Of a stretch of 64,000 nt of DNA, positions 22,342 to 46,700 are shown piece after piece. The notes beneath the pieces are model-generated. The model was not told the origin of the DNA. It worked only from the letters and a program-made list of their open reading frames with translations, and made no database searches. The translations under genes were made by a program, and so were the position numbers. The stretch lies in the NCBI GenBank assembly GCA_942492115.1, contig CALODL010000010.1, forward strand, positions 1,635 through 65,634, given 5' to 3'. The stretch comes from an uncultured Planctomycetota bacterium. Its GTDB lineage: Bacteria > Planctomycetota > Phycisphaerae > UBA1845 > CAIVHJ01. How positions within the stretch are numbered: position 1 is the stretch's first letter; every line of letters begins with the position of its first letter.

Positions 22342-23748
22342 TTAATGAACCGCCCCAACACCGAACATGTCCGCGACATCCTGGTAGGTTTCCGAAAGAG
22401 TTGGATGCGGGTGGATGGTCGCAGCGATGTCTTCAGCAACGGCGCCCATCTCGATGGCGACGGCGGCTTCGGCGATCATTTCACCGGCGTGCGGCCCGGT
22501 GATGCCCACACCGATCAAGCGTTGGCTGTCGGCGTCGACGATGATCTTGGTCAGACCGTCAGGGCGACCAAGAGACACGGCGCGACCGCTGCCGCCCCAC
22601 GGCATCTTCTTGACCTTGATGTTGAGTCCTTGAGCCTTGGCCTCGTTCTCGGTCAAGCCGGCCCACGCCACCTCGGGATCAGTGAACACAACCGCAGGAA
22701 TGACGACGTTGTCGAACTCGGCGTTACCGCCGGCAATGACGTCCGCGGCGACCTTGCCTTCACGGATGGCTTTGTGGGCGAGCATCGGGTTACCGATGGC
22801 GTCGCCGATGGCGAAGATGCGCTTGTCTGCAGTACGCATCTGGCTGTCGACCTGGATGAAGCCGCGCTCGTCGACGACCACGGCGGTCTTGTCGAGACCG
22901 AGCTCATCCGTGTTCGGGCGCCGCCCGACACTCACCAGGATGCGATCGAACTTCGTCGTCGGAGGCGGGCTCTTGCCGTCGTATTCGACTGTGACGGCCT
23001 TGCCCGCATCGCTCACTTTGGTCACTTTGGTGCCAAGGTGAATCCCACCGGTGAACATATCCTTGAGTCGCTTGCCCAGTGGGCGCGCAAGGTCCGAATC
23101 GAGACCGGCCAGAATGCTGTCCATCATCTCGACGACCGTGACCCGACTACCGAGCGCGGCGTAGACCTGGCCCAGCTCGAGACCGATGTAGCCCCCGCCG
23201 ATGACGAGCAGATCGGCCGGGATGTCCTCGAGCTCCAGGGCACCCGTAGAGTCCATGACCCGCGGGCTGTCGATGCTCACCCCGGGAATGGCCACGGGAC
23301 GACTGCCCGTGGCGATGATCGCACGACGGAACTTGATGCGGTCGACATCGCTATCGTGCAAGCGCATTTGCTTGCCGCTCTCGAACACAGCGCGGCCCTT
23401 GATGACGTCGATCTTGGCATTCTTGCACAAAGTCGCTACGCCACCACTGAGGCGCTCGATGACACCGGTCTTGTAAGCCCGCATGCGCTCGAGGTCGATC
23501 TTGGGCTTGCCAAAGCTCACACCTTTGTCGGCGGCGGTTTCAGCATCGTGAATCAGGGCTCCGATGTGCAGGAATGTCTTTGATGGAATACAGCCGACAC
23601 GCAGGCAAACGCCGCCCAGCTGAGGATTGTCCTCGATGAGGGTCACCTTCTGGCCTTGGGCGGCCGCGCGCAATGCGGCAGTGTAGCCTCCGGGACCACC
23701 GCCGATGACGACCTGATCCGACTCTTGAGTGAATTCACCTACGACCAT
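22342..23748 (-). CDS. lpdA: Dihydrolipoyl dehydrogenase (E3)
   Basis: 'VIGGGPGGYTAALRAAAQGQKVTLIE', the redox disulfide 'GGVCLRVGCIPSK', and C-terminal 'HPHPTLSE'. Confidence 0.95.
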   Translation of the reverse strand: MVVGEFTQESDQVVIGGGPGGYTAALRAAAQGQKVTLIEDNPQLGGVCLRVGCIPSKTFLHIGALIHDAETAADKGVSFGKPKIDLERMRAYKTGVIERLSGGVATLCKNAKIDVIKGRAVFESGKQMRLHDSDVDRIKFRRAIIATGSRPVAIPGVSIDSPRVMDSTGALELEDIPADLLVIGGGYIGLELGQVYAALGSRVTVVEMMDSILAGLDSDLARPLGKRLKDMFTGGIHLGTKVTKVSDAGKAVTVEYDGKSPPPTTKFDRILVSVGRRPNTDELGLDKTAVVVDERGFIQVDSQMRTADKRIFAIGDAIGNPMLAHKAIREGKVAADVIAGGNAEFDNVVIPAVVFTDPEVAWAGLTENEAKAQGLNIKVKKMPWGGSGRAVSLGRPDGLTKIIVDADSQRLIGVGITGPHAGEMIAEAAVAIEMGAVAEDIAATIHPHPTLSETYQDVADMFGVGAVH

Positions 23749-23866
23749 CAGCGTGACCCCTGCCGTTTCTCAACATATTCCGTGTGGTGTCCATGAGCGT
23801 GTTGCCCGAATCGCACGAGGGCTTGCTCGACGACGCTGCGCGCCACCGCTGAGCGCCCACGCGGCA

Positions 23867-25156
23867 TTAGTCCTCGAGCAGCAACCGACCAGGCACCTCG
23901 AGATAACCCATCACTTCAGAGCAAAAACGTGCTGCGTCGGCGCCGTCGATGACCCGGTGGTCGAATGACATGTTCATGGGCAGCATATAGCGGGCGACAA
24001 TTTCGCCGTTGCGCACAACCGGCTTCATGTCTGCCTTGCCGAGTCCGAGGATTGCGACCTCGGGATAGTTGATGATCGGCGTCGAGACCAATCCGCCAAG
24101 CGACCCGATATTGGTCAGCGTGAACGTGCCGCCTCGAAGGTCTTCGATTGCAAAGTTGCCCTCGCGGGCCCGTTCGCCAAGCTGGGTCAACTCGCCAGCC
24201 AACTCGCGAATCGACTTGCGGTCGACGTCACGAATCACAGGAACGATCAAACCGCGCGGCGTGTCCACGGCTATGCCAAAATTGAAGTATTCTTTGTAAA
24301 TGATCTCGTTGGCCTTGTGATCGAAGCTCGCATTGAACACCGGGTAGTGCCGCATGGCCGCACAGCAGGCCTTGAGGACGAACGGCAACAGCGTCAACTT
24401 GGGATCATTTTCGGAGCGGCGGGAATTGTGATCCTTACGCAGCTGATCGAGCATGGTGATGTCGGCCATGTCGTGATGCGTAACGTGGACATTGATCGCT
24501 TCCGAACGGACCATCTGATTCGAAATGGCCTTGCGAATCTGCGGAATCGCCTCGCGGCGAATCGATCCCCATTTGGTGAAGTCGGGTAGATCGCTATCTG
24601 GAGGCATGGACACCGTCGACGGAGTTGAAACCGCGGCTGCCGCGGCTGGTCGCGTGGCCGCGCTGGCGCTTCCACCGGTGCCGTCGAGATCGCCGCGTGT
24701 AATCCGACCGCCCGGACCGGAGCCCTGGATCGTGGCCAGGTCGATCCCGCGTTCCTTGGCCAGTCGCCGCACGACCGGAGAGGCCGCGACTCTGGCGGGC
24801 GTGCCCGATCGAGCTGGAGACGTCGCGGCAGGCGCCGCGGCAACTGTCGTTGGCGCGGGCGCCGCAGCTGGCGGCGAGGCCGGCGCTGACCGAGCGGGGG
24901 CCGGCGCTGCAGCGGCCGCCCCATCGCCGAACGTGACCAGCACGGCGCCAACATTGACCGTCTGCCCCGCGTCGACATGGATCTTGCCGATTTTGCCGGA
25001 ATGTGGCGAAGGAATCTCGACCGCCGCCTTGTCGGTCTCGACCTCCATCAGTGGCTGGTCCTCTGAGACCGAGTCACCTTCTTTGACCAGGATCTGAATG
25101 ATCTGCGCTTCGTGGATTCCTTCACCCAGATCGGGAAGGAGAAATTCTTCTGCCAT
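23867..25156 (-). CDS. Dihydrolipoamide acyltransferase (E2) of a 2-oxoacid dehydrogenase complex
   Basis: Lipoyl domain 'VETDKAAVEIPSP', an Ala/Pro linker, an E3-binding domain and a catalytic domain 'SFDHRVIDGADAARF'. Start set at MAEEFLLPD because the longer ORF would overlap E1-beta by 70 nt. Confidence 0.9.
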   Translation of the reverse strand: MAEEFLLPDLGEGIHEAQIIQILVKEGDSVSEDQPLMEVETDKAAVEIPSPHSGKIGKIHVDAGQTVNVGAVLVTFGDGAAAAAPAPARSAPASPPAAAPAPTTVAAAPAATSPARSGTPARVAASPVVRRLAKERGIDLATIQGSGPGGRITRGDLDGTGGSASAATRPAAAAAVSTPSTVSMPPDSDLPDFTKWGSIRREAIPQIRKAISNQMVRSEAINVHVTHHDMADITMLDQLRKDHNSRRSENDPKLTLLPFVLKACCAAMRHYPVFNASFDHKANEIIYKEYFNFGIAVDTPRGLIVPVIRDVDRKSIRELAGELTQLGERAREGNFAIEDLRGGTFTLTNIGSLGGLVSTPIINYPEVAILGLGKADMKPVVRNGEIVARYMLPMNMSFDHRVIDGADAARFCSEVMGYLEVPGRLLLED

Positions 25157-25221
25157 GATTCGTTTCCGAGACTCTAAGTTCGAGTTCGTCAGCGCCTGCG
25201 TCCGTGCACACACCAACTGGA

Positions 25222-26202
25222 TTAGTAGTTCATCGTATCCTGCACGGCCTTGATAATTCGATCTGCGTCCGGCAGATAGATCTGTTCGCAAGCAAAGTAT
25301 GGGAAGTGGATATCGAAACTGGTCACCCGTTTGATGGGTGCCTCGAGATACCCGAAAGCCTTTTCGTTCAGTCGCGCGATGATCTCGGCCGCCACACCGC
25401 AGGTGCGGTTTCCTTCGTTGATGATAACCGCACGGCCGGTCTTCTCGACCGAAGCGACCAGCGTCGCGTCATCCATCGGTGAGATGGTCAGCAGGTCGAC
25501 AACCTCGGCATTGATATCGTGCAGGTCGGCAAGGTCCTCGGCCGCCTCCAGGGTGGCGCGCATTGATGCACCATACGAGATCAACGTGATATGCTCGCCC
25601 GGTCGAACGACCTCGGACTTGCCGATCGTCATCTGCTCGGGCGCCTCGGGGACCTCTTCGCGAAAGGCCCTGTATACGGCCTTGGGTTCATAGAACACCA
25701 CGGGATCAGGATCGTTGATCGCAGCTGCCAGTAGCGCCCGCGCGTTACGCGGCCCCGACGGGATAACCACTTTCAAGCCCGGAATGTGGGCCCAGAACGC
25801 CTCCTTGCTTTCGGAGTGATGCTCGACTGCGCGGATGCCGCCGCCGTACGGAGCGCGCAGCACCATGGGCACGGTATAGCGCCCGCGAGTCCGATTGCGA
25901 AACCGGGCCATGTGCTGCTCTATTTGGTGAAAACCCTGGTAAATGAACCCCGAGAACTGAATCTCGGTCACCGGCTTCAAACCGTAGAGGGCCATCCCAA
26001 TGCTCGTCCCGATGATGCCGGCCTCCGCCAGAGGCGAGTCGAGCACGCGATCGGAACCAAACTTGTCCAGCAACCCCTCGGTCACGCGGAACACGCCCTC
26101 GTCCTGACCGACATCCTCGCCGCACACGACAACGAGTTCGTCATCTTGCATGCACTGATGCAACGCCAGGTTGAGGGCTTTGACCATTGTCAATTCGGGC
26201 AT
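25222..26202 (-). CDS. 2-oxoacid dehydrogenase E1 component beta subunit (transketolase-like)
   Basis: 'MPELTMVKALNLALHQCMQDDELVVVCGEDVG'. Confidence 0.95.
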   Translation of the reverse strand: MPELTMVKALNLALHQCMQDDELVVVCGEDVGQDEGVFRVTEGLLDKFGSDRVLDSPLAEAGIIGTSIGMALYGLKPVTEIQFSGFIYQGFHQIEQHMARFRNRTRGRYTVPMVLRAPYGGGIRAVEHHSESKEAFWAHIPGLKVVIPSGPRNARALLAAAINDPDPVVFYEPKAVYRAFREEVPEAPEQMTIGKSEVVRPGEHITLISYGASMRATLEAAEDLADLHDINAEVVDLLTISPMDDATLVASVEKTGRAVIINEGNRTCGVAAEIIARLNEKAFGYLEAPIKRVTSFDIHFPYFACEQIYLPDADRIIKAVQDTMNY

Positions 26203-26217
26203 GGATCGTTTCCTGCT

Positions 26218-27303
26218 CTAACTTTTCTTGGCCGCGAGAATCTCCAGGAACTCTTTCTTCTGTTCCTGCAGCTCGACGGGCATTTCTGCGTAGGTGTAGT
26301 CAAACATCTTCTCGGGCGCCGGAACGCACTTGGCTTCGAAGCGCTCTATTCCACGACGAACCTCTTCCTGCGCATCCTTGCGGATCTCCTCGATCATGGC
26401 GTCGTCGATATCGCCCTTCTTCAGCAGATAACGCTCGAAACGGAGGATCGGGCACTTCTTCTGCCACAACTTGACCTCCTCATCGGAACGGTATTTCTTG
26501 GGATCGTCAGCAGTGGTGTGCATTTCCATCCGGTAGGTATAGGCTTCGATCATTGTCGGCCCGCCGCCTCTGCGGGCCTTGTCCACGGCTTCGCGCGTCG
26601 CGCTCATCATCGCAAAAATATCATTGCCATCGACTTTGATCCCATCGAAGCCGAACGCCAGGCTCTTCTGGGCGATCGTCTGGGCCGCAGTCTGCTTGTC
26701 GCGCGGCAGCGAAATCGCGTACTGATTGTTCTCACACACGAACACGATCGGAGCTTTGTAAACCCCCGCAAAATTGAACGCCTCGAGGACGTCACCCTCC
26801 GAAGTCGAGCCATCGCCGAACGCGGTCAGCACGATCGAATCCTTCTTGCGGATCTTCATGGCCATGGCAATGCCGACGCCAAGTATGGGGTGCGAGCCAA
26901 CAGGAATGGCCACCGGAAGATCATTTACGCCTTCCGGCGTGCATGCCCCCTCCTCATAACCGTTCCAGAACAACAGGATCTGTTCCATGGTCCATCCGCG
27001 CCACAGTTGTGCGCCGGGGGCCCTGTAGGATGGGGCCACCCAGTCTTCCTTGCGCAGCGGCTGGATGTATCCAATCTGCGTGGCCTCCTGACCCCAGCAC
27101 GGAGCAAACGTGCCGAGCTTGCCCTGACGCTGCATCTTGATCATGCGGGCGTCGAGCTCACGAGTAAGCACCATGAAGCGATAGAGCCTGATCAGCTCAT
27201 CGCTGTTGAGCTTCGGGTCAAGGGCCGGATCGACGTGACCGTCTACGTCGAGGATAGACATCTCCTCGACCCTATGTGATAGCGAAAGTGTCTTTCTAGG
27301 CAC
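26218..27303 (-). CDS. 2-oxoacid dehydrogenase E1 component alpha subunit (TPP-dependent)
   Basis: 'GQEATQIGY' and the TPP-binding 'GDGSTSEGDVLEAFNFAGV'. The start could instead be at MSILD (27261). Confidence 0.9.
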   Translation of the reverse strand: MPRKTLSLSHRVEEMSILDVDGHVDPALDPKLNSDELIRLYRFMVLTRELDARMIKMQRQGKLGTFAPCWGQEATQIGYIQPLRKEDWVAPSYRAPGAQLWRGWTMEQILLFWNGYEEGACTPEGVNDLPVAIPVGSHPILGVGIAMAMKIRKKDSIVLTAFGDGSTSEGDVLEAFNFAGVYKAPIVFVCENNQYAISLPRDKQTAAQTIAQKSLAFGFDGIKVDGNDIFAMMSATREAVDKARRGGGPTMIEAYTYRMEMHTTADDPKKYRSDEEVKLWQKKCPILRFERYLLKKGDIDDAMIEEIRKDAQEEVRRGIERFEAKCVPAPEKMFDYTYAEMPVELQEQKKEFLEILAAKKS

Positions 27304-27435: not shown

Positions 27436-27954
27436 TCAGCGGTCAGTCGCTGCGGATTTGATGTGCTCGAAGGGGTTACGACACGCCTCACAGTAATGTG
27501 TGGCGCGGCAGCGGGTCGGGCCGAAAGGACTGTCGACACGGGTGGAACTGGATCCGCAGAATGGACACGGCACGGCAGAATCGGCGGGAAGCCCCAATTG
27601 GACAAGCTCGGGGGCCGCGACCGTCACACCATGCCCGGCCAGGCGTGCCCGACCGTCCGCGGAAATGCGAGCCGCACTCCATGGCGGGTCGAACACGTGA
27701 CGCAGGACCACCTCCTGCACATCGTTCAATTGACCGACACGCTCTTTGATCAACCCATCGATCATGTCCAGCGCCGGACAACCCGTATAAGTCGGCGTGA
27801 TGTCGATCGCAATCGTTCCATCGCGGCAATCAACGCGCACGACAATCCCAAGATCAACGATGCTGATCGGCATCTCCGGATCGTCAATCGATCGCAAAAC
27901 TTCCCATACGGTACTCTCTTGAACAGACATGGTCTTGAGCAGACGGGCTACCAT
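27436..27954 (-). CDS. paaD: 1,2-phenylacetyl-CoA epoxidase subunit D (PaaD; DUF59 Fe-S assembly-like domain + C-terminal Zn ribbon)
   Basis: 'DDPEMPISIVDLGIV...ITPTYTGCPA...' followed by 'CPFCGSS...CEACRNPFE'. Confidence 0.8.
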   Translation of the reverse strand: MVARLLKTMSVQESTVWEVLRSIDDPEMPISIVDLGIVVRVDCRDGTIAIDITPTYTGCPALDMIDGLIKERVGQLNDVQEVVLRHVFDPPWSAARISADGRARLAGHGVTVAAPELVQLGLPADSAVPCPFCGSSSTRVDSPFGPTRCRATHYCEACRNPFEHIKSAATDR

Positions 27955-28751
27955 TCGGCGCCGGGGTCCAACTGAAACACTTCACTGACTTCGGCCAGTA
28001 ACTCGGTCAACGCCGGATCATGCTGACCGAGGCGCCCGGGGTCACTGAGACAGAGGGCTGCCGCAGGTACAGGAATCCGCGCCCTTTTGCACAGTCGGGT
28101 GATGTCATCGTACCAGCCATCGGCCAGCTTCTGCGCGGGGCCAACCAGGATCTGGTCTGTGGCCAGCGCCTCCTGGCCCTCGACCGGAGCAAACAGCCCA
28201 CCCGCAAGCGGCCACAAGCGTTCAACGGCCCGGTGCACGCGCTCGGCGGCTTCTCCGCCCGATTGGCCCAGGCGCGTCATCCAGCCATCAAAATGTTCAA
28301 TGTGGAACGAAACCTCCTGCATCATCTTTCCAGCCAGTTCGGCCACCGGCCGGAACGCCGATGCCTGCAAAGCCGCCAGTCGATGGCGATCCGCATGGTC
28401 GAAGAAACACTGCCGGGCCACTGCCATGGCCCAGTCGAACTCGTCCTCCGGTTCGACGATTGAGGCATTCAGTCTTTCGTGTGCCGGGCGCGCGTACGCC
28501 AGTTGATTGGCCTCGGCGACGAGGTCCGTCCCTCCATCGATGGCCGCAACGAGTTTGAACAGCTCCTGCGCGTGAGCCACCTCGTCCTGGGCGATGTTGG
28601 AAAAAGCGATGTCCGCTTCGAGGAACGGTCCCAGTCCGGTCCACTCGCCGTTATGATGCCCCAATAGAAATTTGTCATCTGCCAGGGCCAGCAGCACTCG
28701 GCGAACAGCATCTCGCGCATGGTGTGGTATGTCATTGGACGTTTTGAACAT
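27948..28751 (-). CDS. paaC: 1,2-phenylacetyl-CoA epoxidase subunit C (PaaC)
   Basis: 'LALADDKFLLGHHNGEWTGLGPFLEADIAFSNIAQDEVAHA', matching the PaaC signature. Confidence 0.8.
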   Translation of the reverse strand: MFKTSNDIPHHARDAVRRVLLALADDKFLLGHHNGEWTGLGPFLEADIAFSNIAQDEVAHAQELFKLVAAIDGGTDLVAEANQLAYARPAHERLNASIVEPEDEFDWAMAVARQCFFDHADRHRLAALQASAFRPVAELAGKMMQEVSFHIEHFDGWMTRLGQSGGEAAERVHRAVERLWPLAGGLFAPVEGQEALATDQILVGPAQKLADGWYDDITRLCKRARIPVPAAALCLSDPGRLGQHDPALTELLAEVSEVFQLDPGAEW

Positions 28752-28947
28752 ACAGGCAGTCTATCAGACGCTCGAATCGTTGGCCAAACCGACACGGTCG
28801 AAGACACATGCCAGACACGCATGGATACCCCTGTCTGTTCTACCGGCTCGTCATCGTCCCGGTGATCGACATACGCCGGATGTTCATATTTACGCAGTCG
28901 GCGCCGCGATTGTGTGATTTTTCGCCAGGCACGATTGGACTCAGACC

Positions 28948-30171
28948 ATGCATTTCGTGACCCATCTTGAATCAGCCCTCGATCAGACGCGGTTCGCCGC
29001 AAACACGATCCACACACTGCACAAGGACCGTCCACTGTGGGTGCGTTACGACCTCGATGCAATCGGTGCCGCGGTGTCCCCCGGCACATTGAGCGGCCGC
29101 CGCCCGGATCTATGGCGTTATCACGAGCTCCTGCCGGCCGCACCGGCAGAAGCTGTTTCGCTTGGCGAAGGGATGACGCCCCTGCTGCGGGCAGAACGCC
29201 TGGGCCGTGACATCGGGCTCAACGCGCTGTGGATCAAGGACGAATCGCAACTCCCGACCGGGTCGTTCAAGAGTCGCGGCATGGCCATGGCCGTCACCAT
29301 GGCGCACAAGTTCGGAATCAGGCGGGTGGCCGCACCCACTGCAGGAAACGCGGGCGGAGCTCTGGCTGCCTACGGGGCCGCGGCGGGCATGGACGTCTAT
29401 CTGTTCATGCCCCGCGATACGCCGACGGCCATCCAGGCGGAGTGTGTCGGATACGGGGCGCGCGTGTTTCTCGTCGACGGACTGATCACCGACTGCGGAC
29501 GGCTCGTCCGTTCGGGAATCGACTCTGCAGGCTGGTTCGACATGGCCACACTCAAAGAGCCCTATCGCATCGAAGGCAAGAAGACGATGGGGCTCGAGCT
29601 CGCCGAACAGTTCGACTGGCACCTGCCCGATGTCATTGTCTATCCAACGGGCGGCGGCACGGGCTTGATCGGCATGTGGAAGGCCTTCCAGGAACTGCAC
29701 ACGCTGGGCTGGCTCAAGAACGATGCGTTTCCCCGCATGATTGCTGTCCAGAGCACGGGCTGCGCGCCCATCGTCCGGGCGTTCGACGCGGGTGAGCGCT
29801 TCGCCACACCCTGGTCGCCCGCCACGACAACGTCCTGGGGCATACGCGTTCCAGCCGCGGTGGGTGACTTCATGATTCTCGACGCCATCCGTGAGTCGAG
29901 GGGGCGTGCGGTTGCCGTGCCCGAAGTGGAGTTGCATGACTGGGCTCACCGATCCTCTGCGGCCGAGGGTATTTCGATGTGTTCCGAGAGTGGTGCCTGT
30001 GTGGCTGCCGCCCGCCAGCTCGTCGCCGACGGGGTCATCGGCCAGGACGAGAGAGTCGTCGTGTTCAACACCGGATCGGCCCTGAAGTACCACGACGGCA
30101 CAGTCCCCGAACTGCCGGTATGGGCTGCGGATGCCGAGCCGGACTACGCACGTCTCGTTGAGACGGACTGA
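28948..30171 (+). CDS. Threonine synthase-like PLP-dependent enzyme (tryptophan synthase beta superfamily)
   Basis: 'WIKDESQLPTGSFKSRGMAMAV' (PLP-lysine motif) and 'GNAGGALAAYGAAAGMDVYLFMP'. Confidence 0.8.
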   Translation: MHFVTHLESALDQTRFAANTIHTLHKDRPLWVRYDLDAIGAAVSPGTLSGRRPDLWRYHELLPAAPAEAVSLGEGMTPLLRAERLGRDIGLNALWIKDESQLPTGSFKSRGMAMAVTMAHKFGIRRVAAPTAGNAGGALAAYGAAAGMDVYLFMPRDTPTAIQAECVGYGARVFLVDGLITDCGRLVRSGIDSAGWFDMATLKEPYRIEGKKTMGLELAEQFDWHLPDVIVYPTGGGTGLIGMWKAFQELHTLGWLKNDAFPRMIAVQSTGCAPIVRAFDAGERFATPWSPATTTSWGIRVPAAVGDFMILDAIRESRGRAVAVPEVELHDWAHRSSAAEGISMCSESGACVAAARQLVADGVIGQDERVVVFNTGSALKYHDGTVPELPVWAADAEPDYARLVETD

Positions 30172-31278
30172 TCAACTGGCGCTCTTGAGTGCTTTGATCG
30201 TCTCGAACGCCCCCTGAACGAGAAGTGTGTCGCCGGGAGCCAGAAGGGTATTCGGCGCCGGAAAGACAGCTGGCTCGCCATCGGCGGGACGGCGCTCCGC
30301 GACGCCAATGCCGTGTTGCACCATGAGATCCGCCACGGTCTTACCCTGTAATGGGCCGTGCGCCTGGACATGCCAGCGTTTCATGACCACCAGTTGCCGC
30401 CCCACCATGAAACTACCGACGATCGAACGGTCGATGGCGGCCGTAGCGAACGCTGGCGCCGACATCGCCGACTGTGACATGGCGATGTGAATGTCGAATC
30501 CCTCGCGGATCTTGTCGGCCATGTTCTGGTCGAACATCCGCAACACGACACGCACCTCGGGATTCAGTTTGCGGGCGTCGAGCGCAATCTCCAGGTTGGC
30601 CAGATCGTCATTGGTCGCCAGGATGATACTGCGGGCGCCGGCAATATTGGCCTCCTGGAGCAGCACATCACGGCGACCATCACCAATGAGCAGCGGCGAG
30701 CCATCCCGACGAACCTCCTCGATGAACTGCTTGTCCGCGTCACTCTCGATCACGACGACCTGCTCTCCCAGGTGCCGTAACAAACAAAACGTGCGGTAGC
30801 CCAGTTTCCCAAGTCCGACGAGGATCACGTGATTGGACATCGATGCTGCCATGATGTTGCACCAGCTTCTTTCGTAACGCAGGCGATTGCCCATCATCAG
30901 CGCCAGGTCCACAACGCCTTCTATAATGACGGTCAACCCCAGAATGGGCACGACGAAGAACAACGCCCTTAGAACAACGTGTCGCGGGAAAGCCTCTGGC
31001 GGCTCGCCGAAAACCAGGCACCAGGTAAAGTACGTTGCTTCGAGCAGGGAGTGGTTTTTCTCGGGTTCCAGGTATTTGAACAGCAGGCCGCCGCCCAGGA
31101 GAATTGTAAACATGACCGCGAACCGCACGCGGAAGTGGCGGAACGCGGTCCGCAGGAAGCACCACTCGCGCCACAGGCGTTCGCCCCGGCCCGGAGGCGG
31201 CGGAACAAGTGGCAGACCATCGACACGATTGGGCACGGCAGACTCCGAGAGTGGTCGGAGGCGACGGTGACACGTCAC
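30172..31278 (-). CDS. Kch/MthK-like ion channel with RCK (TrkA-N) and TrkA-C domains and a non-canonical pore loop
   Basis: N-terminal 2-TM + re-entrant segment 'TWCLVFGEPPEAF', Rossmann 'ILVGLGKLGYRTFCLLRHLGEQVVVIESD', and a C-terminal TrkA-C domain. Start uncertain. Confidence 0.7.
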   Translation of the reverse strand: MTCHRRLRPLSESAVPNRVDGLPLVPPPPGRGERLWREWCFLRTAFRHFRVRFAVMFTILLGGGLLFKYLEPEKNHSLLEATYFTWCLVFGEPPEAFPRHVVLRALFFVVPILGLTVIIEGVVDLALMMGNRLRYERSWCNIMAASMSNHVILVGLGKLGYRTFCLLRHLGEQVVVIESDADKQFIEEVRRDGSPLLIGDGRRDVLLQEANIAGARSIILATNDDLANLEIALDARKLNPEVRVVLRMFDQNMADKIREGFDIHIAMSQSAMSAPAFATAAIDRSIVGSFMVGRQLVVMKRWHVQAHGPLQGKTVADLMVQHGIGVAERRPADGEPAVFPAPNTLLAPGDTLLVQGAFETIKALKSAS

Positions 31279-31324
31279 CGCCGCCCATCGCGCCGCTGCT
31301 TATAGCGTGCCTCGGTGGTTCGAA

Positions 31325-32677
31325 TCAACCCTTGATCTGTGCCGCGGCGGTATCCGAGCCGTTTGTCGTGCTACCACTCGATACGCGACCGGCAATTGAT
31401 TTGGTCAGTTCCTGGAGATCGATACCCAACACACTCTCGACGGCCGCAACCGAGTCACGCAACATCCGCACACGGCTCATGGCCGCACCAGAGATGGCTT
31501 CGCCGTGTCCGCCATCGATCACCGTAATCTCCCCAAGCTCGACACTCGAGACAGAGTTCGACAATTGCCGGACCACGTCGGGCAGCATCTCGGCCAGCAT
31601 GACCTTGAGTGCCTCGGGGTGTCGCTGGATGGCCTGACCAATGCTCTCGATCGCCGTCGCGCGGGCTTTGCCCTCTTCCAGGATCGAAGCCGCCTGGCCT
31701 TCGGCTGCAGCCTTGGACACATCGCGCGCGGCCTGGGCAGCTTTGACATCGGAGGCTTGCAATCTCGCCTCTTCGGCCTCGGCCATGGCCAGCTGCATCA
31801 GCTTTTCCTGGCCTGCCGCATCGCGGTCGAGATCTGCCTTGCGGATGCGCAATGCCGTCTCTGATTCAGCAATCGCCTGTTCGGCGGACAACCTGGCCTG
31901 CTCGGCCTTCTGGCGACTGACCGCTTCGGTCGCGCGGGCCTCACTGTCACGTTCGGCCTGAGCCTGACGTGAGAACGACTGGGCCTGGGCTTCCTTGATT
32001 TCGGCTTCACTCTTGCGTTCGGCTTCATACTGCCGGGCTTCGGCCCGAACTTTGGCTGACGCCTTACGGGCAATGGAGTCGAGATACTCGCCCTCGTCAT
32101 GGACATTCTGAATATTGACACTGTCTATGACCATACCCAGCTTACGGAAGTCGTCGGTCACCTCGTTCATGACGGTCGCAACGAACTTGTCGCGATCCTC
32201 GACGATTTCCTCGGGGGTCATCTTGCCGATCACCGCACGCAGGCCACCTTCGAGGGTCTCGCGGGCCACACGCTGGAGTTCGGCAACCGGCTGATCCAGG
32301 AACCGCTCGATGGCGTTGCCGCGCATCGCCGGCTCGGACGAGACCTTGACATTGGCCACACCGGTCACGGCCACCGGGATCATGTTGCCGCCGCCTGATT
32401 GCGCGGTCACCTCCAACGCCACCTGCATATTCCGCAAACTCAGGCGGGAAACCTTCTCGAGCAAAGGAATGACTACCGTGCGGCCGCCGATCAGAGTGCG
32501 GTATCCGTTACCGTCGGCCTTGCGTCCACTGATCACAAGCAGCTCACTCGGGTTCCCCACGACCATACACTTAACAACGAGGAGGATGAACGCTATGGCG
32601 GCACCAAGAAGCACCCCACCGATAACCAAACCGGAATTGGCGCTATTTGCTTGTGCGATTAGCGTGTACATGCTCAT
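31325..32677 (-). CDS. Flotillin-like SPFH protein (YqiK/FloT family)
   Basis: N-terminal TM, SPFH domain, and a long Ala/Glu-rich coiled coil ('EAQAQSFSRQAQAERDSEARATEAVSRQKAEQARLSAEQAIAE'). Confidence 0.85.
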   Translation of the reverse strand: MSMYTLIAQANSANSGLVIGGVLLGAAIAFILLVVKCMVVGNPSELLVISGRKADGNGYRTLIGGRTVVIPLLEKVSRLSLRNMQVALEVTAQSGGGNMIPVAVTGVANVKVSSEPAMRGNAIERFLDQPVAELQRVARETLEGGLRAVIGKMTPEEIVEDRDKFVATVMNEVTDDFRKLGMVIDSVNIQNVHDEGEYLDSIARKASAKVRAEARQYEAERKSEAEIKEAQAQSFSRQAQAERDSEARATEAVSRQKAEQARLSAEQAIAESETALRIRKADLDRDAAGQEKLMQLAMAEAEEARLQASDVKAAQAARDVSKAAAEGQAASILEEGKARATAIESIGQAIQRHPEALKVMLAEMLPDVVRQLSNSVSSVELGEITVIDGGHGEAISGAAMSRVRMLRDSVAAVESVLGIDLQELTKSIAGRVSSGSTTNGSDTAAAQIKG

Positions 32678-33365
32678 GGGTACCTCCTGGAGTTGAATTG
32701 GCTACGAACTCGTACTCTTCACGCGATATGACTTCAGCAACACCATTGTTGTAAGCAACAATGACGACGCGGTCTCCAACCTCGAACGAATCGTCGGAAC
32801 GACGGGCCATGGCGGGAATGAACCGTTCCGCCCTGGCAACTTCTGCGCTGACCTCACCCGTGCGCCCCGGAGCGACGGCGACACTCACGCGCGCGGCCCG
32901 GTCGACATAGTCCTCGTGCCGTGTTGCGCTGTTGCCACCTGTCTTCTTGATGATACGGAACAGCTGCTGAACGACCTGACCACCCACGATACCGGCCCCC
33001 CCCGCAACGATGGCGATCCACGGCGGTGCAACGTCGGTCATGAACACCAGTGCCGTCCCAATCCCGCCCATGATGGCCAGAAAGAAAATCCCGAACCGCA
33101 ATGACAGCCACGTGGACAATCCAAATGCCGAGTCTCCGGCGCCATCGACGAACAAGTCGCCGTCCGCATCCGCATCGACGTCCAGGTCGATGTCCACATC
33201 ACCCAGGTCACCCGCATCGGCACCGTCCGCATCACCACCTGCGGCCACGGAGAACATCAGCAACCCGCCCCCGAGGACCAGGCTGGCAATGTAGACCGTC
33301 GGCATCACGGCCCACATACCCTCCCCGTCGATCGCACTCAGTAGATCAATGATCATCATGTGCAC
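32643..33365 (-). CDS. NfeD-like membrane protein (YqiJ family; TM region + C-terminal OB-fold), partner of flotillin
   Basis: Multiple TM helices and a C-terminal beta-domain 'FEVGDRVVIVAYNNGVAEVISREEYEF'. Its 3' end overlaps the flotillin start. Confidence 0.75.
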   Translation of the reverse strand: MHMMIIDLLSAIDGEGMWAVMPTVYIASLVLGGGLLMFSVAAGGDADGADAGDLGDVDIDLDVDADADGDLFVDGAGDSAFGLSTWLSLRFGIFFLAIMGGIGTALVFMTDVAPPWIAIVAGGAGIVGGQVVQQLFRIIKKTGGNSATRHEDYVDRAARVSVAVAPGRTGEVSAEVARAERFIPAMARRSDDSFEVGDRVVIVAYNNGVAEVISREEYEFVANSTPGGTHEHVHANRTSK

Positions 33366-33673
33366 TCCAGGTCAGACCCCGTTAGCTTACAACGCCTTTC
33401 GGACCCGGGCATTAGCAAGAATGTGATTCGAATCTGCTATTGCCGTCCCGCCGTCCTGCACAATCCGACGATCGGATCCGCGGCCCTCAACGCAATGTCA
33501 ACTTACCCTGGTAGTTGAGTTTCGGCCATTCCAACGGCCAAGTGCGTTTATACCTGCCCTGCGGCCGAAAATACCTGGTCCTACGCGTTTTGGTTGATAT
33601 CGTTGCTGTCATTTCCAGCCGTAGACGGCCAGGCAGATGTGAACGGACGCACACGATTGCAGCGCCGGTGACC

Positions 33674-34069
33674 TCAGTAGGCTTCTTTGAGGTCTTCTTT
33701 TTCGTATTCCTTGAGCGCCGGTTCCTTCTGGAAACGCTGCCACAGGCTGCGGACCCCCTGGTAGTCTCGCGCGTAACGGTAGGCGTGCGGAATGGCCTTG
33801 TTGATCGGGGCCGTAGTATCAGTGGTCTCACCGATCTCAGAACGTTCGACGACCCAGATGTTGACGCAAGCCTCGTCCTGGCCGTAGTGCTCACGAGCCA
33901 GTTCCACAGCAGCCTCCCGATCCGGCGCCTGCAACGCACCGGCGTGGATGTGGGGAGAACCGTGCGTCTTGCGCGTAAACACTTCGAACAACTTCATGTC
34001 CGGTTCGGGCGTCAACGGCTCGGATGCCTGGGACGCTCCACCGATTTGTCTGATTCTGGAAAGAGGCAT
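33674..34069 (-). CDS. paaB: 1,2-phenylacetyl-CoA epoxidase subunit B (PaaB)
   Basis: 'KLFEVFTRKTHGSPHIHAGALQAPDREAAVELAREHYGQDEACVNIWVV' parallels PaaB. The start was chosen at MPLSR; MKLFEV at 33997 is the alternative. Confidence 0.75.
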   Translation of the reverse strand: MPLSRIRQIGGASQASEPLTPEPDMKLFEVFTRKTHGSPHIHAGALQAPDREAAVELAREHYGQDEACVNIWVVERSEIGETTDTTAPINKAIPHAYRYARDYQGVRSLWQRFQKEPALKEYEKEDLKEAY

Positions 34070-34095
34070 GACTGATCGAGTCCGTTCAGAATTGC

Positions 34096-35109
34096 TTAGT
34101 TCTGGTGTGTCATGATCGCCTGACGCACCCAAATCCCTTGCTCATAGCTGAAGCGCCGGAGAGCCACACGGTCCTTGTTCAGCGGGCCATTGCCGCGAAT
34201 GACGCGGTAGAACTCGTCCCAATCGGGCGTGCTGAAGCCCCAGTGCCCGGTCTTGTCATCACGCACGGACAGGGGATCCTCGACGAGGTTCGGGTTGGGC
34301 TGTGACGGATCGTCCATGACCGGCCCCGGCAGATTGACTTTGAGCCCCAGTGCCTTGGCCGCAGGGGTGAAGCGGTCGACGAACTTCTGCCGCAACGTGT
34401 CGTTGGTCGCGGTCTTGATGCGCCAGCGCATCATGAGCGAACCGTGGGTCGATTCCTTGTCGGGCGGCCCGAAGAACATCAGGCACGGCCACCACCAGCG
34501 GTCGAAGGCAGACTGCATCATGGCCTTCTGGCGCGCCGTGCCGCTCATGAGCGTGAGAACCATTTCCTCACCGGACTTGAAATGGAAGGCCTCTTCCATG
34601 TTGATGCGTTTCATCGTCCGGATATAGGGCCCGTAGCTGCCCTCGGCGAGGGACTTCTGGTTCATGATTGCCGCACCATCGACCAGCCACTGGATCGCGC
34701 ACACATCCGCCCACGTGGGCGCGGGATAATTGAATACATTGTGGTACTTCGTGCGCCCTTCGCACAAGTCGCGCAGCATTTCATCACGCGGCTTGCCGAG
34801 ATCCTCGGACACGCGGTAGAGCATCTGACCGTGGCCGACCTCGTCCTGGACCTTGGCCATGAGGGCCAGTTTCCGGCGCAACGAAGGTGCACGATTGATC
34901 CACTCTCCTTCAGGTAGTGCGCCCACGATTTCGGAATTGGCGTGGTGCTCGGCAACACGGAGCATTCCGAGGCGATAGTCCTCGGGCATGTAGTCTTCAC
35001 GTTCGATCAATTCCCCCCGTGACACACGCTCCTCGAATTGCATCAACTGATGCGGATCTTCGGGATGCTTCAGGTCCTGAGGGGGCTCATAGCCAGCACT
35101 GACGCTCAT
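34096..35109 (-). CDS. paaA: 1,2-phenylacetyl-CoA epoxidase catalytic subunit A (PaaA, ferritin-like di-iron)
   Basis: 'EDYMPEDYRLGMLRVAEHHANSEIVGALPEGEWINRAPSLRRKLALMAKVQDEVGHG' and 'WLVDGAAIMNQ'. An AAGAGGA RBS precedes the ATG at 35107-35109. Confidence 0.9.
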   Translation of the reverse strand: MSVSAGYEPPQDLKHPEDPHQLMQFEERVSRGELIEREDYMPEDYRLGMLRVAEHHANSEIVGALPEGEWINRAPSLRRKLALMAKVQDEVGHGQMLYRVSEDLGKPRDEMLRDLCEGRTKYHNVFNYPAPTWADVCAIQWLVDGAAIMNQKSLAEGSYGPYIRTMKRINMEEAFHFKSGEEMVLTLMSGTARQKAMMQSAFDRWWWPCLMFFGPPDKESTHGSLMMRWRIKTATNDTLRQKFVDRFTPAAKALGLKVNLPGPVMDDPSQPNPNLVEDPLSVRDDKTGHWGFSTPDWDEFYRVIRGNGPLNKDRVALRRFSYEQGIWVRQAIMTHQN

Positions 35110-35439: not shown

Positions 35440-37143
35440 ATGCGTTCATCGCTCGCCATCGGTTTCCCGGTGCTGCTGGTTCTCAGCAGCGTAGTGGAAA
35501 GTTCCTCAAACGCTCATGTGCTGTTGCAAGTCCTCGAAGAAGAACTGCAGTACGCGACCGAGAACCTCAAGACCGAGGATGGCACCGCCCCATACTACCT
35601 GGCATACACGATCACGGATGTCACGAGCCACTCGATCGGAGCTGAGCTGGGTGCGCTGTACAACGATGACACCGGACACCAGCGCCTGCTCGACGTCGAT
35701 GTCCGCGTTGGGGACTACACGGTCGACAACACTCACAAACTCCGCAGCGGCGGTATGGGCTTCGATCCGTCCGATTTCATGGGGCGCGGAGCCACCCCGG
35801 TCAGCATCGAAAACGATTCCAGCGCTATCAAGCAGGCTATCTGGCTCGCTACGGATCGGAAGTTCAAGAGTGCCGTCAAGAAGTACCAGCGGGTACTGAC
35901 CAACCTCAAGACCAAGGTTGAAGAGGAGGACAAGGCTGCTGACTTCTCGAAGGAACCGCCGAGCAACTTCACTGAAGAACCGATCGAATTCAATCTCGAT
36001 CACGCGGCGTGGGCTGATCGGCTGCGACGCGTGTCGAGACTGGCTCAGACATATCCACTCATCTACAAGTCATCGGTCGCACTGCGTGCATCGGCCGAGA
36101 ATCGCTTCATGGTCAGCAGTGAAGGCACGCGATTGCAAACCAGCCGTCCGCTGTTGCGTGTCGTGGTCTCGGCCTCGACCCGCGCCGAAGATGGCATGAA
36201 CCTCAACCAATCGCACATCTTCAACACCGCCACAGGGGATGCACTCCCCACCGAAGAAGAACTTGCCACGGCCTTCAAGAAAGTCATCGAGCAGGTTCTT
36301 GCGCTGCGCGAGGCGCCACTGGTCGAGCCCTACACGGGTCCGGCAATCCTGCTCAACCGAGCCAGCGGCGTGTTCTTTCACGAAATCTTTGGCCATCGCA
36401 TCGAAGGGCATCGCCAGAAGGATGTGGATGAGGGCCAGACATTCACGAAAATGATCGACCAGGAAGTATTGCCCCAGTTCCTGACGGTGCGCGACGATCC
36501 CACGCGACCCCGCTTCGGCGAGATCGACCTTCGCGGATTTTACAAGTACGACGACGAAGGCGTGCCCGCGCAAAACGTCACCCTGGTGGACAACGGCATC
36601 CTCAAGACCTTCCTGCTGTCTCGCTCGCCGGTCCAGGATTTTGTGCGGTCCAACGGCCACGGGCGGCGTGAGCCGGGCCAACGATGCGTGGCCCGCCAGG
36701 GTAATCTCATCGTCGAATCGACCAAGCGCGTGTCGTTCAGCACATTACGAGAACTGCTCATTGAGGAATGCAAGCAGCAGGACAAGCCCTATGGCCTGTT
36801 GTTCGAGGACATCACCGGCGGATTCACGACGACGCGACGACGCGGAGCACAATCGTTCAAGGTGCTGCCCGTCGTAGTCTATCGAATCTACGCGGACGGG
36901 CGCCCCGACGAACTCGTCCGCGGTGTCGACATCGTTGGCACACCACTGAGTTGCTTCTCCAAAATTACGCACACTGCCGACGACGACGCGGTATTCAACG
37001 GATCCTGCGGAGCAGAGTCGGGGTGGGTCCCGGTCTCGGCCATTTCTCCCAGTGTGCTGGTATCTCAAATCGAGATCGAGAAACGGCAGCGGGCGCAAGA
37101 CAAGCTACCACTCCTCGATCCGCCGATCGCCGAAGTGCAATGA
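35440..37143 (+). CDS. Secreted TldD/PmbA-family metallopeptidase (peptidase U62)
   Basis: Signal peptide and 'FHEIFGHRIEGH' (HExxxH). Family-typical length of 567 aa. Confidence 0.8.
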   Translation: MRSSLAIGFPVLLVLSSVVESSSNAHVLLQVLEEELQYATENLKTEDGTAPYYLAYTITDVTSHSIGAELGALYNDDTGHQRLLDVDVRVGDYTVDNTHKLRSGGMGFDPSDFMGRGATPVSIENDSSAIKQAIWLATDRKFKSAVKKYQRVLTNLKTKVEEEDKAADFSKEPPSNFTEEPIEFNLDHAAWADRLRRVSRLAQTYPLIYKSSVALRASAENRFMVSSEGTRLQTSRPLLRVVVSASTRAEDGMNLNQSHIFNTATGDALPTEEELATAFKKVIEQVLALREAPLVEPYTGPAILLNRASGVFFHEIFGHRIEGHRQKDVDEGQTFTKMIDQEVLPQFLTVRDDPTRPRFGEIDLRGFYKYDDEGVPAQNVTLVDNGILKTFLLSRSPVQDFVRSNGHGRREPGQRCVARQGNLIVESTKRVSFSTLRELLIEECKQQDKPYGLLFEDITGGFTTTRRRGAQSFKVLPVVVYRIYADGRPDELVRGVDIVGTPLSCFSKITHTADDDAVFNGSCGAESGWVPVSAISPSVLVSQIEIEKRQRAQDKLPLLDPPIAEVQ

Positions 37144-37168
37144 GCCTGACCTTCCCAGGAGTCCTGAA

Positions 37169-38914
37169 ATGACCGTCTGTTCACTGACATTGTCCCTGGC
37201 CCTTCTGGCACAAACAGCGGACCCGTCATCCGACATCATCGCCGACAACGATGTCGTCATGCGGGCACTGGTCGATGAGATGCAACGGTCCATGACGCTG
37301 CAGATGGAAGATCTGCAAAAGCCTTATTTCATACAATACACCGTCGATGACGACATCACATACCAGATGTCCGCGAGCTACGGGGCCATCACGACATTCA
37401 ATCGCGACCGCTCGCGTTCATTCCTCGGCCAGGTCCGCGTCGGCTCGCCGGAACTGGACAATACGAATTTTGCAGGCGGACGCATGTTCCGTTTTGGTGG
37501 TGGGAGCGGCGGCCGAGCGGCCCTGCCACTTGATGACGACTACATGGCCATTCGGCAGGCCATCTGGTGGGCCACGGACAACATGTACAAGCAGGCTGTC
37601 GAGACCCTGACTCGCAAGCAAGCCTACATGGAAGACAAGCAGCTCGAGGACCGGCCCGATGACCTTGTGCCGTCCAAGCCCTCCGAACATCTCGACCCGG
37701 GCGCTGAAGTCCATTTTGACCAAGCTGCCTGGCGCGCCCATGTCAAGACGCTGTCCGCGGTCTTTTCGCAGTATCCCATCGTCCAGGACTCCAACGTCCG
37801 CCTGCTGATCGGTGGCGGTAACACCTATGTGGCCAATTCGGCAGGCACACGGGTGCGCAAGAACGACCATGGCGTGCTACTGATCATAACGGCCGAGACG
37901 CAGGCCGAAGACGGTATGCGCATATCAGATGGCTTGTCTTATTCGGGCGAGACGACAAACGATCTCCCGGCAGTCGAAGCGATCCTCAAGGATATCGCCA
38001 ACATGGTCACAGGACTCGATGCCGCGCGAAACGCGCCGTACCTCGAAAGCTACAGTGGGCCAGTTCTGTTCGACGGTCACGCATCGTGCCAGATGTTCCA
38101 GTCGCTGATCTCGACTGCCATCGCCGGCAGCGTCGAACCCGTCGGCTCGCAGCGTCGGTCGATGAGCGCCAGCGGCAACATGGAGAAAAAACTCAACAAA
38201 CGCATCCTGCCCAAGTCGTTCCAGATCTATGATGATCCGACTATCAAGAAACACGGCGACCATTTGCTGTTTGGCCACTATGTTTACGATGACGAGGGTG
38301 TGCCTGCAGAACGGGTGACGATTGTCGAGAACGGTGTGCTCAAGTCCCTGGTCATGTCACAGGTTCCCACGAAGAAACTGACCGGCAGCAACGGTCATGC
38401 ACGCCGCAGCGGCGACGGCGGGCTGGCGCGGGCGGCTATCGCGAACCTGTTCATCGTCGATGACAAGGGTAAGTCAATGGACGAACTCAAAGCCGAGCTC
38501 ATCGAAGCGGCCGAAGATGCCGACCTCGAGTACGGCATCCTGATCAAATCCTTGAGGTCGGCCGGCATCGCTTCGAGCCAATCAGATCTCATGTCGTTTT
38601 TCATGCGCGCCCAACGTCGCGGGGCGCCGTCTCTGGGCGATCCGGTGTTCGCGTACAAAGTCTATGTCGAGGATGGCCGCGAAGAACTCATTCGTGGTCT
38701 GGAGTTCGCCCCCGTGGAAGCTCGAGAGTTGAAGAACATCATGGCCGCTGGCAACACGCAGGTCGTGCATAATTATGTCGGGTTCGGCACGACGGGGACG
38801 ACCCCGGCCACGTCGATCATCGCCCCGGCGGTACTCTTCGAGGAGTTGGAACTGGCCAAGATCGAGCAAGAGAAGGACAAGCTACCGATCCTGAAAGCAC
38901 CTGTCGCACGCTAG
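37169..38914 (+). CDS. Second secreted TldD/PmbA-family protein (tandem partner)
   Basis: AGGAG RBS before MTVCSLTLSLALLAQ (signal peptide). PmbA/TldD-like throughout; paired with the upstream gene as in TldD/TldE heterodimers. Confidence 0.8.
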   Translation: MTVCSLTLSLALLAQTADPSSDIIADNDVVMRALVDEMQRSMTLQMEDLQKPYFIQYTVDDDITYQMSASYGAITTFNRDRSRSFLGQVRVGSPELDNTNFAGGRMFRFGGGSGGRAALPLDDDYMAIRQAIWWATDNMYKQAVETLTRKQAYMEDKQLEDRPDDLVPSKPSEHLDPGAEVHFDQAAWRAHVKTLSAVFSQYPIVQDSNVRLLIGGGNTYVANSAGTRVRKNDHGVLLIITAETQAEDGMRISDGLSYSGETTNDLPAVEAILKDIANMVTGLDAARNAPYLESYSGPVLFDGHASCQMFQSLISTAIAGSVEPVGSQRRSMSASGNMEKKLNKRILPKSFQIYDDPTIKKHGDHLLFGHYVYDDEGVPAERVTIVENGVLKSLVMSQVPTKKLTGSNGHARRSGDGGLARAAIANLFIVDDKGKSMDELKAELIEAAEDADLEYGILIKSLRSAGIASSQSDLMSFFMRAQRRGAPSLGDPVFAYKVYVEDGREELIRGLEFAPVEARELKNIMAAGNTQVVHNYVGFGTTGTTPATSIIAPAVLFEELELAKIEQEKDKLPILKAPVAR

Positions 38915-38938: not shown

Positions 38939-39235
38939 ATGGCGGATACACCACCCTACGAATCCGTGTGCATCTACATCGCACATGTCCTTGTCGATCG
39001 CGCCGATGGACCGACCAAGATCTATTGTTTCGTCCCGGCGCCGTCGGAATCCGCGGCCGACGTACGGCTCCGCGAGGCACTCGCGAGCCGCAACCTCAAG
39101 TACAAAGCGACGGAATTCATTAAGTCATACTGGGACTACGAATGGGATACCAAGAAGCTCCAGAAGCAATATGATCGTCTCGCCGAAGAGGCATACAAGT
39201 CGCGTGAAGTGACCATCGCTGACCTGGATGCATGA
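38939..39235 (+). CDS. Hypothetical protein (98 aa)
   Basis: Intact ORF between the TldD pair and the thiolase. No recognisable motif. Confidence 0.45.
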   Translation: MADTPPYESVCIYIAHVLVDRADGPTKIYCFVPAPSESAADVRLREALASRNLKYKATEFIKSYWDYEWDTKKLQKQYDRLAEEAYKSREVTIADLDA

Positions 39236-43390: not shown

Positions 43391-43422
43391 GACGTTTCCT
43401 CCGTTTCGTGAACGACAACAAC

Positions 43423-44687: not shown

Positions 44688-46700
<2,013 letters not shown>

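Follow-up and report, generated by a model that had tools for sequence, protein, structure and literature searches.

A probable old rearrangement separates paaAB from paaCD in the phenylacetyl-CoA catabolic gene array of an uncultured planctomycete

The closest described counterparts of the locus considered here are the phenylacetyl-CoA catabolic (paa) clusters of E. coli and Pseudomonas, with their PaaABC(D)E epoxidase, and a 2009 survey of paa clusters found paaABCD united in a single operon in all 25 clusters examined, and paaE apart from the cluster in 4 of 23 instances (23 paaE genes for 25 clusters) (PMC2653477). In a further type of paa cluster, the fused PaaZ is replaced by a stand-alone PaaN (TIGR02288) and a crotonase-type hydrolase. 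The stretch analysed here, called the window throughout, comprises 64,000 nucleotides of a contig from an uncultured Planctomycetota bacterium (CALODL010000010.1, positions 1,635 to 65,634; assembly GCA_942492115.1). It resembles the E. coli and Pseudomonas clusters in possessing homologs of PaaA-D and of PaaF, PaaG, PaaH and PaaJ, but departs from them in having no linked PaaE, PaaK, PaaZ, PaaX or PaaI-type thioesterase, in the separation of paaAB from paaCD, and in a pyruvate dehydrogenase (PDH)-type complex embedded in the array. As argued below, the window probably holds a planctomycetal paa cluster that has been rearranged, and the feature itself is likely to be an old, lineage-specific rearrangement in the gene array of a known pathway, of a kind that is frequent in the phylum. 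The split is unusual when set against the 25 intact operons of the survey and commonplace within the Planctomycetota.

Are the separated genes truly those of the epoxidase? Profile searches with Pfam and NCBIfam, read against curated cut-offs, bear out the initial annotation, made from the letters of the window alone, in which paaA and paaB stood apart from paaC and paaD: all four genes are genuine, the products of paaA, paaC and paaD exceeding the equivalog cut-offs and that of paaB the Pfam cut-off. The gene for the catalytic di-iron subunit of phenylacetyl-CoA 1,2-epoxidase, paaA (34096-35109, minus strand, like the three others), scores 396 bits against TIGR02156 (cut-off 280) and encodes 337 aa that are 46% identical to E. 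coli PaaA and 100% identical to a protein of a public collection (P0001); its nearest named homologs, at 70-80% identity, belong to metagenome-assembled genomes (MAGs) of Phycisphaerae and other Planctomycetota. Its residues E60, E90, H93, D144, E173 and H176 align with E42, E72, H75, D126, E155 and H158 of the E. coli protein, which we take to be the di-iron ligands of the E. coli PaaAC structure papers; these six are invariant across 34 planctomycetal homologs, and the window PaaA matches every one of the ~150 columns that show no variation among 34 homologs. The bridging subunit is encoded by paaB (33674-34069), a 131-aa protein with a single PaaB domain (PF06243, 63 bits, cut-off 27) that is 61-64% identical to the 131-aa PaaB of three relatives (L001, L006 and L012). 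The structural subunit gene paaC (27948-28751; TIGR02158, 181 bits, cut-off 133) specifies a protein with 29% identity to E. coli PaaC, and paaD (27436-27954; TIGR02159, 145 bits, cut-off 108) combines a DUF59/FeS_assembly_P domain with a zinc ribbon (PF01883, PF23451). PaaB takes another form in the main planctomycetal clade, where a protein of ~200 aa carries two tandem PaaB domains in one open reading frame (ORF) (L053 11040-11640, L055, L070, L085 and ~25 others), perhaps a PaaB dimer in covalently joined form.

To place the split in a wider context, 80 planctomycetal MAG loci (1.22 Mb in total, including flanks of up to 10 kb at either end) were retrieved with a PaaA alignment and mapped by tblastn with the window proteins and with E. 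coli PaaE, PaaK and PaaZ; a genome scan with PaaC alone as query recovered zero relatives, because PaaC diverges fast. The dominant layout among the 80 loci reads, on one strand, FlK-type thioesterase-PaaF-PaaG-PaaH-PaaJ-PaaA-B-C-D-E1α-E1β-E2-E3, followed on the opposite strand by paaY and a PaaN-type aldehyde dehydrogenase gene, both found by clustering unassigned ORFs; in 42 of 70 relatives the thiolase gene immediately precedes paaA in the same orientation. Of the 66 loci that were evaluable for the arrangement of the epoxidase genes, 39 have paaABCD contiguous, 18 paaA alone and 6 paaAB only, while paaA, paaC and paaD are present with paaB undetected in 2, and paaA-C with paaD undetected in 1. 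The paa genes are split in 24 of these 66 loci, and on one 4.24-Mb contig paaA lies ~2.4 Mb away from paaBCD. Neighbour-joining analysis of PaaA, with the E. coli protein as root, unites the window and four relatives (L006, L012, L013 and L014) in a clade in which the array of every one of the five is interrupted after paaB; its sister group comprises all other planctomycetal sequences, among which ABCD followed by E1 is widespread. Since the array common to the relatives is contiguous, the split in the window would be derived; the idea that an ancestral paa operon had suffered an insertion is thereby supported, and synteny identifies the block of flotillin, putative channel and threonine synthase genes, together with the gene that had been labelled nfeD, as an insertion relative to the contiguous array of most relatives. 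Elsewhere in the phylum the paa array is disrupted repeatedly as well, by Uma2-family and IS200-like insertions. Genes for Uma2-family endonucleases directly follow paaA in eight loci (L028, L029, L032, L034, L037, L041, L046 and L047), mostly ones where paaB-D are lost, and genes for IS200-like Y1 transposases lie between paaG and paaH in seven (L053, L058, L060, L061, L075, L078 and L080).

The gap between paaB and paaC measures 4,922 bp, somewhat less than the 5.7 kb given originally, and accommodates four unrelated genes, one of them on the opposite strand. Next to paaB lies a gene for a membrane protein (32643-33365, minus strand) for which the NfeD label could not be confirmed, Pfam returning zero matches even at E≤1; a flotillin/Band_7 protein (31325-32677, minus strand) was verified by profile search. 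A 'Kch-like channel' (30172-31278, minus strand) does possess RCK domains (TrkA_N/TrkA_C) and two predicted membrane helices, but the loop between them reads LVFGE instead of a TVGYG-type potassium selectivity filter, and the canonical GYG is missing. The gene on the opposite strand is, as proposed, that of a threonine synthase (thrC; 28948-30171, plus strand; NF006050, 555 bits). Two more SPFH/Band_7 proteins are encoded on the plus strand just beyond the E3 gene, of 553 aa (18844-20505) and 564 aa (20508-22202), so that three SPFH-domain genes fall within 14 kb; relatives hold paaY and paaN at the position beyond E3.

How old is this insertion? The same paaB-paaC insert occurs in only one relative (L004/L006), where the order is thiolase, orf98, paaA, a gene for 712 aa, paaB, flotillin, membrane protein, thrC, paaC, paaD and E1-E3; compared with the window, the flotillin module is inverted, the RCK gene is missing and there is an extra gene between paaA and paaB. 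This extra gene encodes 712-725 aa with no match in Pfam or NCBIfam (L006 11371-13509; L007 2283-4460). Recurrence of the split layout in the independent JGI contig of this relative, with which two overlapping Logan contigs from another sample (L005 and L007), jointly spanning the arrangement, agree, shows that it is not an assembly artefact. Its PaaC is only 49% identical to that of the window despite the shared insert, which argues that the insertion is old. The flotillin, membrane-protein, RCK and threonine synthase genes were found in none of the 80 other loci. A repeat search over 27-36 kb returned short chance matches only, with no terminal repeats and no target-site duplications. A recent foreign origin of the paaB-paaC block was considered and rejected, given that the GC content is uniform (~60%) along the whole window and that homologs of the flotillin, membrane-protein and thrC genes occupy the equivalent site in a distant relative.

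The present layout probably arose as follows. An ancestral array, reconstructed from relatives as thioesterase, PaaF-G-H-J-A-B-C-D and E1α-E1β-E2-E3, then paaY and a PaaN-type dehydrogenase gene on the opposite strand, was broken up between paaB and paaC before the PaaA clade of the window diversified. In the lineage of the window, the gap came to hold thrC, the flotillin module and the gene for the RCK protein, a TldD/PmbA pair was inserted upstream of paaA and the thiolase gene was inverted, leaving the epoxidase genes in at least two same-strand blocks, paaAB on the one hand and paaCD followed by E1-E3 on the other. Judging from family membership, PaaA, PaaC and PaaB would epoxidise phenylacetyl-CoA, PaaD would serve as a maturation factor, and the electrons would come from a reductase encoded elsewhere in the genome. 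Ring opening would need a PaaN-type dehydrogenase whose gene would be located outside the 64-kb window, and the crotonases, PaaH and PaaJ would take the ring-opened product to acetyl-CoA and succinyl-CoA. Phenylacetyl-CoA itself might be supplied either by an unlinked PaaK-type ligase or by the adjacent 2-oxoacid dehydrogenase (OADH) complex acting on phenylpyruvate.

Several points weigh against this account. PaaB (57 bits against a cut-off of 85), PaaF, PaaG, PaaH and PaaJ all fall under their NCBIfam equivalog cut-offs; the 80 loci were chosen by PaaA similarity and are all MAG contigs, so that the proportions given here describe a biased sample of the phylum; that each block (paaAB; paaCD-E1-E3) forms one transcription unit is read from gene spacing only; and the pathway could be degenerating, given the frameshifted PaaG-like gene described below and the absence of PaaN and PaaY from the window. 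A scan for promoters and terminators gave sites no more numerous than in shuffled sequence. The split as such carries little weight: genes for a multi-subunit enzyme that were 'invariably' intact in the early survey are often dispersed in planctomycetes. Weightier is the context in which it occurs, namely a phylum-level group with paa clusters that lack a linked reductase, nearly always lack a linked ligase, and carry a PDH-type complex in mid-array.

The lower-pathway genes form a second conserved portion of the cluster, and the thiolase, 3-hydroxyacyl-CoA dehydrogenase, three crotonases and thioesterase listed initially at 39.3-44.7 kb are all present, with the qualification that one of the crotonase genes, the PaaG-like one, is frameshifted and not intact. 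At 45-58% identity, E. coli PaaF, PaaG, PaaH and PaaJ match the lower-pathway proteins of the window, and the best NCBIfam models of PaaF, PaaH and PaaJ are those for PaaF, PaaH and 3-oxoadipyl-CoA thiolase, respectively. The cluster is headed, in the window's clade, by a POT/PTR2-family peptide transporter gene (44688-46700, minus strand; PF00854, 178 bits), of which an 80% identical ortholog occupies the same position in L006; L001, too, has a PTR2 gene at this position. There follow, all on the minus strand, a FlK-type hot-dog thioesterase (44284-44676; PF22636, 110 bits) with zero NCBIfam matches and no BLAST similarity to E. coli PaaI, which opens the conserved array in many relatives and probably takes the PaaI role; a BadI/MenB-like crotonase (43423-44259; ECH_1, 172 bits; best NCBIfam model BadI with 169 bits, far under its cut-off), a candidate ring-hydrolysing enzyme present, besides L006, only in L012, L013, L026 and L038 of the 80 loci scanned; a PaaF-like enoyl-CoA hydratase (42620-43426; NF007239, 318 bits, cut-off 371; 46% identity to E. 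coli PaaF); the PaaG-like crotonase (41782-42605; TIGR02280, 69 + 183 bits), an isomerase or possibly an alternative oxepin-CoA hydrolase; and a PaaH-like 3-hydroxyacyl-CoA dehydrogenase (40477-41709; TIGR02279, 412 bits, cut-off 669; 45% identity to E. coli PaaH). The PaaJ-like 3-oxoadipyl-CoA thiolase gene (39293-40489; NF006551, 584 bits, cut-off 605; 58% to E. coli PaaJ) is inverted relative to the rest of the array and reads on the plus strand, as do orf98 (38939-39235), which encodes a conserved 98-aa protein of no Pfam or NCBIfam family and recurs in L004, L006 and L007 as an ortholog of 47% identity flanked by the thiolase gene and paaA, and a TldD/PmbA-type metallopeptidase gene pair (35440-38914; PF19289 in both ORFs) that separates the lower-pathway genes from paaA and for which the 80 related loci offer no homolog.

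What interrupts the PaaG-like gene is a single-nucleotide deletion within a run of G (AAGGG-TAC) near 42335, which leaves the N-terminal (42270-42605) and C-terminal (41782-42315) parts in different frames; the ortholog in L006 runs uninterrupted across this point (...LRKGYNPM...). The frameshift may reflect either a real pseudogene or an assembly error.

What, then, of the functions that a complete paa pathway is expected to have nearby? The initial statement that PaaE, PaaK and PaaZ are lacking is borne out for the 64-kb window: tblastn searches with the E. coli sequences as queries (E≤10) and Pfam scans of the other ORFs detected none of the three, nor did the scans show the domains of a PaaE reductase (FAD/NAD-binding plus [2Fe-2S] ferredoxin) in those ORFs. 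Likewise, tblastn detected PaaE in 0 of the 80 related loci, and the missing linked paaE is a property of the whole planctomycetal group and not of the window alone. These data are consistent with an epoxidase that would use a non-PaaE reductase. Curated haloarchaeal paa sets (NF041867-NF041869) offer a parallel of sorts: the 'PaaE' model among them has 56 positions and matches the zinc ribbon of the window PaaD, which suggests that another lineage, too, has no reductase-type PaaE among the genes curated as paa. The likeness goes no further, as the window PaaB and PaaD score far under the haloarchaeal cut-offs (48 vs 150 and 98 vs 180) and the zinc ribbon of the window is fused to PaaD, as in bacteria.

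Of the 80 loci, only one (L027) has a linked PaaK ligase gene; there, as in a related JGI contig, the PaaK-family gene follows paaN and has its closest named relatives in Chloroflexi; another PaaK-family ligase gene occurs in an unrelated context in one Phycisphaerae MAG. The lack of paaZ in the relatives is explained by their stand-alone PaaN-type dehydrogenase: their PaaN_2 scores 770 bits against TIGR02288 (cut-off 579), and the accompanying PaaY-like hexapeptide protein, with 284 bits against a cut-off of 319.6, is 59% identical to E. coli PaaY. The gene for the latter immediately follows E3 in all 9 evaluable loci, 6 of which show PaaN_2 there as well. In this respect the relatives agree with the PaaN-type clusters, as they do in having crotonases and no MaoC-type hydratase domain, and the window crotonases partially match the model 'oxepin-CoA hydrolase, alternative type'; unlike such clusters, however, the window has no PaaN gene and none of its crotonases reaches the cut-off for the alternative hydrolase. 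As neither PaaN_2 nor PaaY homologs were found in the 64-kb window, the paaN and paaY genes must lie elsewhere in the genome or have been lost.

Directly downstream of paaD, profile searches confirm an operon for a PDH-type 2-oxoacid dehydrogenase complex (22342-27303, minus strand). It comprises E1α (26218-27303; TIGR03181, 443 bits, cut-off 411), which starts 132 nt after paaD, E1β (25222-26202; 288 bits vs a cut-off of 321), E2 (23867-25291; 433 bits vs 722; its true start is probably ~140 nt inside the ORF) and E3 (22342-23748; TIGR01350, 500 bits, cut-off 409). This operon had been treated as an unrelated neighbour, a view that the relatives contradict, as an orthologous E1α follows paaD within 3.5 kb, typically at ~250 bp, in 29 of 38 loci. 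Its position between paaD and paaY/paaN in the relatives is the most unexpected result of the analysis. The E1α-E1β-E2-E3 layout is that of the heterotetrameric PDH complex of Bacillus and Geobacillus, whose E1 (1W85) is also the closest solved structure (264 and 325 bits), and E1α passes the PDH equivalog model TIGR03181; what sets the window operon apart is its start immediately after paaD and, in relatives, its enclosure between paa genes. The E1 proteins of the Thermus and human branched-chain 2-oxoacid dehydrogenases score 221 and 204 bits, against 264 for Geobacillus PDH E1α, and with values this close the substrate is not readable from similarity.

Could this complex, rather than a ligase, deliver phenylacetyl-CoA to the epoxidase? 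As an extension of the rearranged-cluster account, it is possible, if still tentative, that the PDH-type complex beside paaCD oxidatively decarboxylates phenylpyruvate, derived from phenylalanine or peptides, to phenylacetyl-CoA, making PaaK unneeded. The proximity of E1α to paaD just described, and the bracketing of the OADH genes by paaD and paaY in all 9 evaluable loci, would fit such a role, as would the fact that in split arrays (the window, L004/L006 and L101) paaCD and E1-E3 remain together, the near-absence of a linked PaaK, and the peptide transporter at the cluster head in the window's clade. In an E1α tree, moreover, all 28 paa-linked sequences form one clade, apart from 78 unlinked homologs; yet this monophyly is equally well explained by vertical descent in the phylum. 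Gemmataceae carry a different type of OADH at the same kind of site, a fused E1αβ (698-702 aa) plus E2 after paaABCD-paaN. There is also a precedent in PglB/PglC, PDH-like E1α/E1β proteins of the Streptomyces pristinaespiralis phenylglycine operon, for which conversion of phenylpyruvate to phenylacetyl-CoA is proposed (PMC7089894). The two cases are alike in a PDH-type E1 encoded beside genes that use phenylacetyl-CoA, and differ in that the Streptomyces operon belongs to secondary metabolism, holds E1 subunits only, and has an activity that is itself a proposal. Searches of the literature on paa clusters in planctomycetes and on catabolic complexes that dehydrogenate phenylpyruvate turned up the PglB/PglC proposal as the only relevant item, and no paper in the library searched was found describing reductase-less, nearly ligase-less paa clusters with an embedded PDH-type complex.

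A phenylpyruvate role is opposed by several findings of another kind. E1α passes the curated PDH equivalog model, in the main clade barely (413-414 bits vs 411), and the closest solved structure is a pyruvate dehydrogenase. A metagenome scan anchored on E1α brought up 80 operons of ~50% identity on contigs of 46-73% GC, mostly from other phyla and with only two members, one of them evaluable, in the planctomycetal clade; 79 of the 80 are without paa neighbours, and the complex could be a housekeeping PDH. Finally, there is one lineage with PaaK and OADH both near paaABCD, besides the unlinked PaaK-family ligase of the Phycisphaerae MAG. An argument that clusters carry either PaaK or OADH, never both, had been entertained and was dropped because of that lineage. 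Should the complex feed phenylpyruvate into the pathway, it would open a new way into it, leading from phenylalanine to phenylacetyl-CoA, the pyruvate dehydrogenase label that automated annotation gives to its E1, E2 and E3 would be misleading, and surveys anchored on paaK would miss planctomycetal degraders of phenylacetate or phenylalanine entirely.

A stronger version of this idea, which we regard as rather doubtful, holds that the complex is a dedicated arylpyruvate dehydrogenase, turning phenylpyruvate into phenylacetyl-CoA independently of ATP and ligase, and that the epoxidase works without a PaaE-type reductase. The electrons for epoxidation might then come from the flavoprotein E3 or from an unlinked ferredoxin system, and the two electrons released by decarboxylation would equal the two needed for epoxidation.

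If, by contrast, the pathway were decaying in this organism, the split, the frameshift in the PaaG-like gene and the missing PaaN and PaaY would be steps towards loss and the epoxidase would be nonfunctional. The single-nucleotide frameshift, the lack in the window of the PaaN_2 and PaaY homologs that follow E3 in relatives, and the 18 of 66 loci that retain paaA alone could all be taken in this sense. Decay is nevertheless improbable, considering that every other ORF of the cluster is intact, that the window PaaA keeps its full complement of invariant columns, that the frameshift, located in a run of G, may stem from misassembly, and that the split, together with an intact PaaG ortholog, persists in the relative with a 49%-identical PaaC, which speaks for a layout that has long been stable.

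Very unlikely, and unsupported now that PaaA, PaaC and PaaD pass their equivalog cut-offs, is the suggestion that the ABCD proteins oxygenate another aryl- or acyl-CoA ester instead of phenylacetyl-CoA: the atypical context without PaaK or PaaE, the FlK rather than PaaI type of the thioesterase and the additional BadI/MenB-like crotonase might be cited in its favour, but the PaaA equivalog model gives PaaA 396 bits and the BoxB model 19, the lower-pathway set of the window matches PaaF, G, H and J, and the clusters of relatives carry a PaaN above its equivalog cut-off together with the PaaY-like protein.

Some further features of the planctomycetal loci and of the window may be recorded. The fused E1αβ and E2 genes of Gemmataceae lie at 14974-18251 in L040 and 14517-17802 in L043, and occur also in a contig of JGI 3300047160; in L043 they are followed by a gene whose product has a homogentisate-dioxygenase-like N-terminal domain. 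In L001, a close relative of the window, a pterin-4a-carbinolamine dehydratase gene (11474-11764) comes after paaB. This enzyme normally partners phenylalanine hydroxylase, and its occurrence here may point to a connection with phenylalanine catabolism. A lyase of the aspartase/fumarase class, extended at its N terminus by ~180 aa, is encoded 6-10 kb upstream of paaA in L058 (1314-3314) and 13 other loci, and in the main clade the lyase gene upstream of the paa array is accompanied by a divergent α/β-hydrolase gene. In the window itself, a giant ORF of 2,318 aa (48619-55575, minus strand) displays Ig-like, MopE-type metal-binding and concanavalin-like motifs.

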